From NCBI GenBank assembly GCA_951406725.2, contig OX597833.1, positions 24,180,001 to 24,244,000 on the forward strand: a stretch of 64,000 nt of DNA. The letters are read 5' to 3'. Under the pieces are notes generated by a model. It was given only the letters and a program-made list of their open reading frames with translations. It was not told the DNA's origin and did no database searches. Origin of the DNA: Octopus vulgaris (lineage: Eukaryota). Position numbers and translations under genes: made by a program. Shown in pieces: positions 3,038-53,668 of the stretch; the first letter of the stretch is position 1, and each line of letters opens with the position of its first letter.

Positions 3038-3355
3038 GTATGTATATATACATATATATTGCATACAGGTCTTCCTTTTCATCGTAAACCGGTGATTACC
3101 GCCCGTTGACAAGAGGCAACTACCTCGAAACTGCAGTCCGTGCATATCCCTTAGGCTTACGAGAGAGGGATGACCTCCCTTTGCAAATACCATAAGGGCA
3201 CAGATAGTGTGCCTAAAGCCAGCTGGAGACGATGATCTCTTGGGGCTAAAAGCTACAGTAACACCCACCCTTTGTGGTTAGCCATATTGAGATGGCTATT
3301 ATACTTTACATTGTCGAGCAGTTACTGTTTACATCTCGTTCAGAGATTTATTATT
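2169..3355. mobile_element. Fold-back Penelope-like terminus composite (hairpin 2216..2486 plus inverted copy 3166..3355), interrupted by a SINE and (TA)n
   Basis: ~130-bp near-perfect arms 2216..2347 / 2357..2486; 2169..2357 is inverted at 3166..3355; hammerhead at 3101; flanked by (TA)n. Confidence 0.7.
3101..3143 (+). ncRNA. Decayed hammerhead, same family as 34761..34830
   Basis: GCCCG-UUGACAA-GAGG(CAACUA)CCUC-GAAA-CUGCAG-UC-CGUGC; two core substitutions. Confidence 0.7.
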
Positions 3356-19413: not shown

Positions 19414-19980
19414 TTGGGTTGTCTGGAAAGTTTGTGCCGATTATTAAAAGAAAGAATAAGATCAATAAATACTTGCCATTACATTTTTAATCAACCAAAC
19501 ATGAATCATTTTGTTGCATAATGCATCTCCATCTTTCCTTTAACTTGAAAATACCCTCTTCCCAGAATTGAGGTGGTTTCATGGCAAAGAATTCATCAAG
19601 GTATCTTTTTATGTCATCCAAGGAATTAAAGTTTCTACCATTAAGACTATTCTGCAGAGACCTGAATAAGTGGAAATCCGAAGTAGCAATATCTGGTGAA
19701 TATGGGGGGGGTGGGTAACACATCCCAGCCGAGCTGCAGTAATTTTTGTCTGGTTCTCAAAGCATCAAGTGCCGAAAATGATCTTTCTTATCTTCCATTT
19801 AAAAGGGTTACAGAATTAACACAGGTTATAGGAACATAAACCTTCTTCCATGAAAAGATAGCTTAAACTGTGCTCTAAATGGAGGTGTAGTCAAATCCTA
19901 TTTTATGGACTCAACCATGTTCTAAAATAAGTCAAACGGTAAGCTACTATAAATCGGCACGAACTTTCCGGACAACCCAA
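19414..19980 (-). mobile_element. Internally deleted mariner element
   Basis: TIRs ttgggttgtctggaaagtttgtgccgatt / aatcggcacgaactttccggacaacccaa; PYSPDIATSDFHLFRSLQN. Confidence 0.9.
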
Positions 19981-30941: not shown

Positions 30942-32211
30942 GTTGGCAAGAAAGTAATTTTGTTTTTCACAAATAGATAGAGTTACGATATTTTTGAATG
31001 GCTTTTCTTAATGTTATGATTTTTTTTTCCTTTTGACATTTGATTGTTGCTACCTTTAGCTTACTTCAGAAGCAAATTTTGCGTAATTTTGTTTACAATT
31101 GTTAGCTCAGTGTCAATTTTAAAATGGAGTAGCAAAAATGAACATTTTCACCATATTTTCCTTTTTATTTCTGTAAAGGTAAGAAAGTTGCAGAGGCTCA
31201 CAAAGAGATATGTGAAGTTTATGGCATTGATTGCTTAACAGAACGCACATGTCAAAAATGGTTTTAAAAAATCCGTTTTGGGGATTTTTTACTCAAAGAT
31301 GACCAACTAAAGTTGATGATGGCTGAATCAAAGCCATAACTGAATCTGATTGTCATACAACTGCGTGAGAGATTGAAGAGAGAGATTAAATGAATCACAC
31401 ACAACAATTGAAAATCACTTAAAATGTCTTGGACTTGTTAAGAAGCTCAATATTTGGGTTTCACATAAATTGAAAGAGATTCACTTAATACAATATATCA
31501 ATATTTGTGATATACATCTCAAACACAATAAAATTGATCTTATTTTGAAATGAAACATCACTGGTGATGAAGAATGGATTGTCTACAATAACATCAATCA
31601 AAAAGGATTATGGTCCAAGCATAATGAACGAGCACAAACCACATCGAAAGCTGAATTACATAAAAAAGTCATGCTGTCAATTTGGTGGGATTACAAAAGT
31701 GTTGTGTATTTTGAGCTGCTTCCAAGGAACCAAACAATCAGTTCAGATGTTTAGTGTTAACAATTAATGAAACTGGAGGAAGCAATCAAAGAAAAACGGC
31801 CAGAATTGGCAAATCATAAAGGAATTGTTTTCCACCATGATAACACTAGAACCACACATATCTTTGGTAACTCATGGAAAAGTATTGGAGCTTGGTTGGG
31901 AAGTGATACCACATTCACTACATAGCCCTGATCTTGCACCATCAGATTACCATTAATTTCAAAGTTTACAAAATTCTTTGACTGGTAAAACTTTTAATAA
32001 TGATGATGACCTGAAATCGCACTTGCTTCAATTTTTGGTTGATAAGGACCAGAAGTTCTATGAATGTGGTATCATGAAGTTGTCAGAAAGATGGCAAAAG
32101 AACATCAAACAAAATGCAAAAATATATAATTGATTAAAGTTCATTCTTTGTATGAAAAGAAAATGACTTTTATTTCACACTTAAAAGCTGAAATTACTTT
32201 CCTGCCAACCC

Positions 32212-34209: not shown

Positions 34210-34251
<42 letters not shown>

Positions 34252-34679
34252 TGGCTGTGTGGTAAGTAGCTTGCTAACCAACCACATGGTTTCGGGTTCA
34301 GTCCCACTGCATGGCATCTTGGGCAAGTGTCTTCTGCTATAGCCCCGGGCCGACCAAAGCCTTGTGAATGGATTTGGTAGACGGAAACTGAAAGAAGCCT
34401 GTCGTATATATGTATATATATGTATGTGTGTCTATATGTTTGTGTGTCTGTGTTTGTCCCCCCAACATCGCTTGACAACCGATGCTGGTGTGTTTACATC
34501 TCCGTCACTTAGCGGTTCGGCAAAAGAGACCGATAGAATAAGTACTGGGTTTACAAAGAATAAGTCTCGGGGTCGATTTGCTTGACTAAAGGCAGTGCTC
34601 CAGCATGGCTGCAATATATATATATATATATATAATGATAAATATCAAAGTGAGTTATATACAGTAGCGGTAACACATT

Positions 34680-34964
34680 GTGACGTATTTTTGCCATTTC
34701 AATATGGCTAACCCCTAAGGGTGGATGCTACTGTAGTGAAGGAAATCTAATTCTCGGCGACAACTATGATTGTCACACGCTGACGAGAGGTCAATACCTC
34801 GAAACTCGAGTCCGTGTGTATCATAAGTTGAAGACGGGAAGGATGACTTCCCTTTGCAAATACTGACAGGACACAGATAGTGTGTCTATGGCCTCCTGGG
34901 GCTAAAAACTACAGTAGCATCCACCCTTAGGGGTTAGCCATATTGAAATGGCAAAAATACGTCA

Positions 34965-34965
<1 letters not shown>
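34680..34965. mobile_element. Fold-back Penelope-like terminus carrying the intact hammerhead
   Basis: Perfect 58-bp inverted repeat 34680..34737 / 34908..34965; homologous to 2169..3355; between (TA)n tracts. Confidence 0.75.
34761..34830 (+). ncRNA. Type I hammerhead ribozyme, intact core, extended bulged helix I
   Basis: CACACG-CUGACGA-GAGG(UCAAUA)CCUC-GAAA-CUCGAG-UC-CGUGUG; helix I continues CAAC-UAUGAU/AUCAUA-A-GUUG beyond an internal bulge; predicted cleavage after C34812 (GUC). Confidence 0.9.
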
Positions 34966-35004
<39 letters not shown>

Positions 35005-35116
35005 TCTTTTACTTGTTTCAGTCATTTGACTGTGACCATGCTGGAGCACCGCCTTTAGTCGAGCAAATCGACCCCGGGACTTATTCTTTGTAAGCCCAGT
35101 ACTTGTATATATATAT

Positions 35117-51710: not shown

Positions 51711-52750
51711 CTGAAAGATAAAATTAATCAAAGGATATATTAAGTATGTCTACCTGCTGGAAATAACAGTAAAAACTCTTATTTAAATCGTGGTCCGGTT
51801 TCTGTACTGGCAAAATAAAATTGCCTTAAGGTCATCACCACGTGTTGCCATGAAAAGAGACCCAAAACTATTCGTATTGAAGTCTGCGCTGCAAGTGATT
51901 CGTTTTGCACCGAAATCAAATTCCGGCCACCAGTGAAAAAGATGCCCTCTATACAAGGGCAAAAAATTTGCGAGAAAATATATAGTTCTCGAAAATTAAT
52001 AAGCTAAGATATTATTGATTTTGTTATCATCTGGAATGACTAGTTTAAAAAAATGATAATAACAGAATCTACTTCGGTTGATTTCTGTAGTTATCATCAG
52101 TGTAATTTTGGCGATTTAAATAAGAGCTTTGACTGTTATTTCCAGCAGGTTGACATACTTAGTATGTCCTTTGATGAATTTTAATTTTAATCCTTCAGCT
52201 ATTAAATGCTTTTCTTGGGCCAGCGATCACCTATATTATTAATTCTGTTATTATCATTTTTTAAAATAGTCATTCGAGATGATAACAAATTTGATAATAT
52301 CAGCAAATTAATTTTGAGAATTATATTTTTTCTCGCGGTTGGCCTGGTGGAAACTGCGGGTTGGTAGATGATATGCAGTTTTTCGCGGAGGCACAGCTGG
52401 CAATTAAGGGCGCTAGGTGAAAATGGTGGCGCCCTGTCGATAATAGTCTACTTGATGCTGGATATTTCGTCTCGGGGGTTACGGAGTCTCCAGAGAAAGT
52501 GTGATAGGGAAGTGAAGTTCTCTCTGTCCCTGGATCTAAATGAATGCAAATGCTGGGAATAACATCCCTTGAAGTCATTGGCTGTCATGGCCGTGTAGTG
52601 CCTAGTAATGCCATTGGATGGTGTAAGGGTGGCTCTGTATACTACAACCCTTGAGAGACAGGGTCCTGATAGAGGGCAGGTAGTAGGGTTTCGAATGTTG
52701 AAAGTTGGGGTTGTGATGTTTCCGGCAACAAGTCTGCTCCTCAATGACAA
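51711..52750 (-). mobile_element. Penelope-like retroelement 3' remnant: degenerate GIY-YIG endonuclease plus inverted terminal segments
   Basis: CPLSGPCLSRVVVYRAT..RHYTAMTANDFK..YSQHLHSFR..TSLSHFLW.., then past a TAG stop NCQLCLREKLHII, matching PLE GIY-YIG C-termini; inverted repeats 51711..51790/52112..52201 and 51971..52048/52242..52335. Confidence 0.8.
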
Positions 52751-53668
52751 ACTGATGGAAACTTCTTGTTTAAGCTCAGAAACAGTCAGATGATGAGAGA
52801 CCCACGAAGTTTAAACACCTTTCCTTGTTCTTGAAGTTGTTTTATGAATGAAGTGTTTCGCTAATTCTCGTGTAGTTTGTGGTTTATTTTCCTCAACTAT
52901 GGTTTCAGAAGCTCAATATAGATAGAACTCTGCCGTCCAGCTTGAAGGGAATCTGGAAGAGAAAAATTTCCTGGCTAAGCTTTCGTTACTATGTTCGGAG
53001 GCTTCGTACCATTTCCATTGCTGAAAAGCCTTTTTTGAATTCCTACAGCATGCAGTATATGTTATAGATCTGTTCTAACATGGTGTAAAGTAATCTGTTG
53101 AGAAACATAAAAATCAAAAGAAAGAAACAAATATAACACCATTAGGCTGTGGAAATTACTGTTTATTTTACCGAAAGTATTGAAAAAGTACCCTATAAGT
53201 GATCATGTCAAAAATGCGACAAAATTATCTTTCCACCTTAATATCCATCTATCTATCCATCTATCTGTTCCCCTCCCCTCCCCCACAAACTTGTATTATA
53301 TCACACAGATACTCTAACTTGGAGTAGTTTCTTATATTAGACTCGAGTCGAAAATTTTAGTACCGTACACCGCTCCTTAGCGTAAAACGATTTATATATA
53401 TATATATAAATAATTTTTTTTCCGTAATGAGATAAAAAACCAAGGCTGTGTAGATTTTAGAATATTTATAAATGTTTTAAAATCTACACAGTCTTGGTTG
53501 TTTATCTCATTATGGAAAAAAATTTATACACACACTAATATATGCCCTACGTTGGACCCCTTATTCGCATAATCACCGAATCTGGAACTCAAGTATAATC
53601 TGTCCATAGCACTTATTCAGTATTACCTGACACCTTTGGGTCTCACTGACACCATTACCTCTGATAAC

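Follow-up and report, generated by a model that had tools for sequence, protein, structure and literature searches.

Metazoan non-LTR retrozymes, described in coral, mussel and axolotl, are non-coding tandem repeats with units of about 350 nt (within 150-450 bp), GC contents below 50% and stable predicted circular forms, and each unit carries one canonical type I hammerhead with a 2-bp helix III and a tetraloop (Cervera and de la Pena, 2020; PMC7229834, in its available portion). According to a 2020 review, retrozyme repeats carry no motif indicating a partner (PMC7761336). The available text on Xenopus retrozymes concludes, from co-occurrence and pLTR similarity, that Penelope-like elements (PLEs) mobilise retrozymes; it suggests local tandem expansion, and reports cleavage in only one of nine dimers (bioRxiv 10.64898/2026.07.22.740005). 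According to the portions available of three PLE studies, elements of the Neptune and Hydra clades show 5' truncation, partial tandems, an inverted 5'-truncated copy, a tail at one end, (TA)n targets and a hammerhead upstream of two fixed ends (PMC8557442, PMC3846280, PMC11167929), so that the tail, often at one insertion end, and the inverted copy are already in print (PMC8557442, PMC3846280). The anole PLE, as far as the accessible text describes it, nicks both strands of AT-rich DNA in vitro and initiates reverse transcription at a pair of internal positions delimiting the tail, with no strand difference between them; a dimer is predicted, hammerhead cleavage is dispensable and unprocessed RNA is the main substrate (PMC11167929). 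For cleavage, the hammerhead of the anole PLE required the PLE protein.

We analysed a 64,000-nt stretch of Octopus vulgaris contig OX597833.1 (the window), which contains a hammerhead motif in an intron of a glutathione S-transferase (GST) gene. Very probably, the element carrying it belongs to a young family of non-LTR retrozymes (family A), as a 5'-truncated copy that was likely inserted in trans by the reverse transcriptase/endonuclease of a PLE. Positions in the family A monomer are numbered q1-353 from core G8, with the cleavage site between q28 and q29. The features are:

34774-34818, + strand: type I hammerhead core with helices I, II and III (Rfam match and motif inspection; predicted cleavage after C34812)
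34761-34830, + strand: hammerhead plus distal helix I beyond a UGU/U internal loop
34634-34968: entire family A fold-back insertion, 335 bp, two 5'-truncated arms head to head with 3' ends outward
34634-34737, - strand: inverted arm, q142-245, terminating at the long end, with a single substitution at q200
34634-34676, - strand: 43-nt tail, q203-245, confined to the inverted arm
34736-34968, + strand: direct arm, q305-353 then q1-202, terminating at the short end
34680-34737, - strand: left copy of the exact 58-bp inverted repeat (q142-199)
34908-34965, + strand: right copy of the exact 58-bp inverted repeat
34614-34633: left (TA)n target tract
34969-35001: right (TA)n target tract (target-site duplication unreadable)
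40035-27836, - strand: host intron of the GST-omega gene, about 12 kb, between exons 40141-40036 and 27835 onward
3070-3337, + strand: older subfamily B copy with a U3-A8 hammerhead core and the long end
2210-2482: older subfamily B fold-back without a hammerhead

All parts of the hammerhead that the first-pass annotation had claimed are present: the core segments CUGACGA (34780-86) and GAAA (34801-04), helix I formed by CACACG (34774-79) and CGUGUG (34813-18), helix II (GAGG/CCUC, with the loop UCAAUA), a palindromic helix III (ACUCGAGU, 34804-11) and a distal helix I (strands 34761-70 and 34820-30). The Rfam check proposed there aligned model RF00163 over its full length to 34774-34818 (32.2 bits, E 2.9e-6, search in 451 nt), though below the gathering score of 34 bits; because the score falls just below this cut-off, a gathering-threshold scan of the whole window returned no hammerhead. 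A hammerhead descriptor matched once in the window versus not at all in 100 Markov-simulated windows. Loop II is 6 nt long and ends in AAUA, like the Rfam consensus, and the helix I bulge lies 6 bp away from the core and is retained in every subfamily; in hammerheads, loop II and a helix I bulge can form a tertiary contact. The predicted energy of helix III is -10.7 kcal/mol as an 8-bp intermolecular duplex versus +2.9 kcal/mol as a cis hairpin, in line with the earlier suggestion that the palindrome is suited to dimers. Against the ribozyme, equilibrium folding gives helix II a pairing probability of just 0.3. The annotation had inferred an active ribozyme; we take the motif to be real and self-cleavage to be a prediction: the ribozyme would likely cut multimers into monomers able to circularise, best as a dimer via the palindromic helix III.

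The annotation had placed the element at 34680-34965, enclosed by a perfect inverted repeat. The true insertion is larger (34634-34968), with the inverted arm reaching 34634; the 58-bp repeat is indeed exact but does not delimit the element, since it is the inner part of the 104-bp inverted arm, of which 61 bp pair with one mismatch and the 43-nt tail is unpartnered. This repeat is the overlap of two outward-pointing 5'-truncated arms, a by-product of integration, and not a terminal inverted repeat. The arms share 2 nt at 34736-37, and the direct arm has an 18-nt deletion between 34893 and 34894, inside a conserved hairpin. The (TA)n tracts on both flanks mask any target-site duplication longer than 4 bp. 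With one ribozyme and without q246-304, the window copy cannot produce a full circle and, given the deletion as well, is probably a dead end. Two facing pieces of an abundant SINE-like repeat (34250-34612 and 35004-35095) flank the (TA)n tract of the insertion.

The family A unit is 353 nt long, non-coding and arranged head to tail, with one type I hammerhead per unit; arrays have a 353-bp period and reach about 6 units per arm, and at least two tandem hammerheads occur in 30 of 118 insertions. The GC content is 0.42 and the fold of the circular monomer has a z-score of -7.1 (-4.6 for subfamily B). The longest ATG frame noted is 38 aa, without a homologue, and no tRNA was found. A search of the octopus's own 2.8-Gb genome gave 43 matches at 96-100% identity among 40 candidates scored of 2107, and we place the copy number at no less than a few hundred. 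This genome-wide search, which the first-pass annotation had called for, thus revealed a dispersed young family. Copies diverge from the column majority at 275 of 68838 sites (0.4%); it is this divergence that bears out the claimed recent insertion, and not the perfect inverted repeat from which the annotation had concluded it.

The 3' ends of family A fall at two places only, q199-202 (short end) and q244-248 (long end). Searches with exact junction patterns returned, for the short end, 97 rows in forward and 166 in reverse orientation; for the long end the numbers were 59 and 176, and backward control patterns returned none. We estimate about 190 short and 120 long end sites rather than using the raw rows, because reverse rows repeat sites and are mostly doubled. 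A 383-nt contig from run X1 consists of one monomer plus 30 nt and includes the head-to-tail joint, which was present in all four runs inspected; these runs are contigs, from which a circle and a tandem are indistinguishable, and are not on record as RNA. Monomer words at 92-100% identity also occur in runs of eight organism labels, which may reflect relatives, mixed samples or recent transfer. Repbase, Dfam and published supplements may already contain family A; within the part of the literature covered we found no description of it or of twin priming by PLEs.

Loci retrieved through the hammerhead or through either of the two ends were pooled; most lie on contigs C1-C8, and the sample is drawn through end patterns and best hits. 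The resulting 118 insertions or fragments comprise 59 fold-backs, 43 direct short-end copies, 15 direct long-end copies and one fragment, a few of those called direct being in fact fold-backs, complex or decayed, that the script had divided (L242, L265). The fold-backs have long/short ends in 53 cases, long/long in one, short/short in none and long/other in five. Thus, where both ends are canonical, 53 of 54 combine a long with a short end, the second arm stopping 43-49 nt later to give the tail; this rule (P about 1e-8 against a 2/3 null) is present in each ascertainment class. No pairing between subtypes of the short and long ends was found. A (TA)n tract adjoins 168 of 177 3' ends. The 5' ends are scattered, overlaps at the arm junction are mostly 0-6 nt and arms measure 27 to 2125 bp. 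The cleavage site leaves little trace among 5' ends: 73 of 106 arms extend through it, and three of 177 simple 5' ends lie in q24-34 versus about 5.5 expected. Three further internal junctions fall in this interval, and an exact cleavage-site start is seen in L252 only (nine 5' ends at 'q1' are mostly artefacts of the monomer cut point). Internal jumps (e.g., q315 to q31) bypass structured parts of the unit in some copies (L218, L232, L240, L253).

Family A therefore resembles the coral, mussel and axolotl retrozymes in its approximately 350-nt non-coding tandem unit, its single canonical hammerhead with 2-bp helix III and tetraloop, its low GC content (42%) and its stable predicted circle. 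Circular RNA and cleavage, demonstrated for those retrozymes, are predicted for family A, whose twin fixed 3' ends, tail, inverted second arms and (TA)n targeting are not described in the available portion of that report (PMC7229834). These features are those of PLEs: 3' ends adjoining (TA)n, 5' truncation, partial tandems and an inverted 5'-truncated copy are all found in family A, as are the tail at one end and the hammerhead upstream of two fixed ends. The tail, 43-49 nt long, agrees with the tail of about 30-40 bp at one end of PLEs. Unlike PLEs, family A lacks an ORF, its hammerhead is canonical where theirs is minimal, and its ends lie 170-220 nt past the cleavage site. The non-coding Penelope-related or retrozyme-like family suggested at first pass is therefore what we find, with a 353-nt tandem unit, PLE-type ends and (TA)n targets. 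The conclusion agrees with that drawn for Xenopus, but the evidence is integration anatomy, without pLTR similarity, and the arrays lie scattered, delimited by PLE-type ends, rather than locally expanded (as suggested in the accessible text of that preprint, bioRxiv 10.64898/2026.07.22.740005). The element is of a known kind, the non-LTR retrozyme, and retrozymes as PLE derivatives are already in print; family A adds unusually clear signatures of Penelope integration.

The hammerhead itself is ordinary, as thousands occur in animal retrozymes, and the value of the locus lies in family A. Which enzyme moves metazoan retrozymes, and how the inverted copies and tails of Penelope elements originate, are open questions that the family addresses. 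A young, short element leaves countable footprints (a short and a long end, a single haplotype), and these are repeated by three intact PLE families.

Two related subfamilies terminate at the same positions as family A: subfamily B (355 nt, 70% identical to A, 3567 candidates) and subfamily C (about 82% identical, 3452 candidates). For covariation we used 54 hammerheads from A, B and C, leaving out one of the 55 extracted (L054, insertion-shifted); as only sequences whose distal helix and 3' core were almost intact could be extracted, the set is biased towards pairing. In this set 89% of cells pair, versus 82% when shuffled and at most 52% when slid, and both sides change in 10 of 21 hammerhead pairs, a number reached by 27 of 500 shuffles. 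At core pair 3-8, 27 of the 54 have C-G and 23 have U-A; U3-A8 is a known variant of PLE hammerheads (PMC4209133, available part). Helix III is built from three different palindromes across the subfamilies and is self-complementary in 94% of cells. Mismatches include C.A at the base of helix II in subfamily C (26 of 54 cells unpaired) and C.U in helix I of many subfamily B copies. Because the three subfamilies are kin, their covariation amounts to no more than a handful of events. That the helices, the 3-8 core pair and the helix III palindrome covary suggests that function has been under selection in the lineage. Within young family A, conservation of the core is not significant (changes at 3 of 1752 sites versus 210 of 56978), as is expected of neutrally decaying copies. 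The preferential conservation that the first-pass annotation had set as a test is thus seen as covariation between subfamilies and not as significant sparing of the core within family A. A near-homogeneous array of about 9-10 subfamily B units was noted at 13.62 Mb of C4 (L044-L056), and eight of nine subfamily B units seen in L051 have a one-base insertion in loop II.

The two arms of an insertion share a haplotype. At a column that is polymorphic at 49:50 the arms agree in 38 of 39 fold-backs, the common polymorphic column is uniform within 61 of 62 insertions, and 14 rare variants are common to both arms, although shared variants could stem partly from gene conversion or assembly polishing between arms. 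Where at least two units cover a rare variant, it is confined to a single unit in 143 cases, present in all units in 18 (12 spanning both arms) and present in some units in three. Since the arms share variants and extend through the cleavage site, each insertion would derive from one template that is longer than a cleaved monomer, either an uncleaved multimer or a circle.

In looking for a partner we identified three intact PLE families. H1 is a young Hydra-type element reached from a window remnant via public proteins (L127-L156, e.g., L136:1453-3633), with a 727-aa frame free of stops in 61 of 63 scored matches, a minimal hammerhead in the pseudo-LTR and a 70-nt tail; most of 30 copies are more than 99% identical to one copy. 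N1 and N2 (L312-L327, L349-L362) are young Neptune-type elements found via the Pfam GIY-YIG domain, encoding 781 aa in 16 of 16 loci chosen for long frames and 784 aa in 10 of 14 loci fetched, respectively. Both have U3-A8 hammerhead-like cores, with GCAA instead of GAAA in N2. Clade names follow linker motifs as given in the available part of PMC8557442, not a tree. All three carry a hammerhead-like motif and target (TA)n. Their two fixed ends are spaced by 70 nt in H1, 34 in N1 and 36 in N2 versus 43-49 in family A, and all nine PLE fold-backs examined follow the short/long rule (four of four in H1, one of one in N1, four of four in N2).

We found no similarity between family A and H1, N1, N2, 30 GIY-YIG loci or the old Hydra remnant (blastn, in part also nhmmer), and no sequence common to subfamily B and H1, N1 or N2. 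Flanks of family A insertions contact H1 or N1 only across (TA)n, and folds around the ends have nothing obvious in common. The partner PLE is left unnamed because no intact family tested matches family A in sequence; further PLE families exist in the genome. Several leads were discarded. The 3' UTR of the window's Hydra-type remnant proved unrelated, a loose end traced in public contigs gave just one old subfamily C copy, and a short ATG frame over both ends, considered as the relic start of a PLE ORF, has no homologue and reads GTG in subfamily C copies. The remnant itself (52205-52810, - strand) is a decayed PLE GIY-YIG endonuclease with a Hydra-type linker, and has 9797 candidates in the genome, all 150 of those scored being diverged. 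In a family A fold-back at 97.80 Mb of C5 (L270), the right arm alternates about six times with pieces of the N2 3' UTR. The A and N2 sequences progress in parallel, for comparable distances and with frequent small indels. A consensus in which two alleles are mixed is therefore no less probable than template switching, and the locus is excluded from the evidence.

Because the fold-back shape, the two fixed ends and the (TA)n targets are as in intact PLEs, a Penelope enzyme likely copies family A. We propose that source arrays would be transcribed and that a PLE protein, probably dimeric, would nick both strands of a (TA)n tract. Its two active sites would prime at different RNA sites, one at the short and one at the long. 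Each cDNA would end prematurely, and 0-6 nt of microhomology would join the pair into a fold-back; a single cDNA would give a direct copy. The template would be an uncleaved multimer or a circle, and in fold-backs the long/short rule suggests that the two start sites are used one per strand. In twin priming by LINE-1, two cDNAs are primed from the two target strands and joined through microhomology, which inverts the 5' part. On our proposal family A is alike in its two cDNAs and inverted part; it differs in the constant position of the second priming and in having one and the same part of the unit in both arms. The partner and template can be tested in the existing in vitro PLE assay, for which there are three candidate proteins, a 353-nt RNA and predicted start sites. 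The fullest version of this proposal, with a PLE dimer priming once per fixed RNA site and strand, an uncleaved multimer from a single locus as template and N2 as the donor (on account of the L270 mosaic), is one that we hold only tentatively and think rather unlikely to be right in every part. If true, the dimer/multimer reading would make family A a genome-wide in vivo record of Penelope integration.

The same element and enzyme could instead always use a monomeric circular RNA, with rolling-circle reverse transcription as in the retrozyme model already in print and both primings on one circle, which we regard as a serious possibility, if short of an even one. Uniform units at the common polymorphic column and arrays such as L276, with two private variants in every unit, suit a monomer bottleneck such as a circle, and long arrays need such a bottleneck to persist; the stable circular fold (z -7.1) is likewise favourable. 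Two insertions point the other way (L256, L162; n=2): they have a rare variant in some units, and its order matches between the arms, a pattern better explained by a heterogeneous multimer than by one circle. Nor are changes in excess at the ligation site (3 of 669 versus 0.36% overall), and in the accessible account of the anole PLE cleavage is dispensable and unprocessed RNA is the main substrate (PMC11167929). The fold-backs may also have arisen without two primings, through snap-back of a single cDNA, later inversion or assembly error. Identical arm haplotypes would fit this origin, as would the indel-rich arms of L242, L164 and L270, which are common for palindromes in long-read assemblies. 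We consider it improbable, as the window copy and at least nine short fold-backs (L116, L230 and L255 among them) have sequence in each arm that the other lacks, so that neither arm was copied from the other; moreover, the flanks differ between sides and the long/short rule is common to three unrelated PLE families.

The exact 58-bp inverted repeat and the TA flanks might suggest a miniature DNA transposon (MITE or fold-back element) with terminal inverted repeats and a hammerhead present by chance. This is the least credible explanation of those weighed, since 59 of the 118 insertions or fragments lack an inverted arm, arm length varies between 27 and 2125 bp, the long/short rule makes the two ends unequal, and head-to-tail arrays and variable 5' truncation occur. 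Mirrored terminal inverted repeats of fixed length are absent, and the arm and end statistics refute a DNA transposon. The intact motif within an intron likewise invites the idea that the hammerhead regulates the GST gene, as domesticated intronic hammerheads do. We judge this very unlikely for an insertion that is antisense, very recent, near-identical to hundreds of dispersed copies and adjoined by a deletion.

The host gene encodes an omega-class GST and lies on the minus strand. The motif is on the plus strand, so the hammerhead is antisense to the gene, as annotated, and would leave the GST pre-mRNA uncut. An effect of the window copy on GST is improbable. The exon upstream of the host intron opens at a splice acceptor and the first exon was not located; the intron, named as intron 2 in the annotation, is indeed a GST intron and is at least the second.

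Elsewhere in the genome, an Rfam search found six unrelated hammerheads among 73 candidates scored. Three loci belong to another hammerhead family, unrelated to A, with a very long loop II (L092, L093, L096; L092 in inverted arrangement), and three more are additional unrelated type I hammerheads above the Rfam cut-off (L091, L094, L095). The window also contains fragments at 31549-32130 (+ strand) and 19490-19790 (- strand) that we take, from their motifs, to be decayed and mariner transposase-like. The GST pre-mRNA would contain a perfect 58-bp hairpin at 34680-34965 (- strand), a possible substrate for A-to-I editing.
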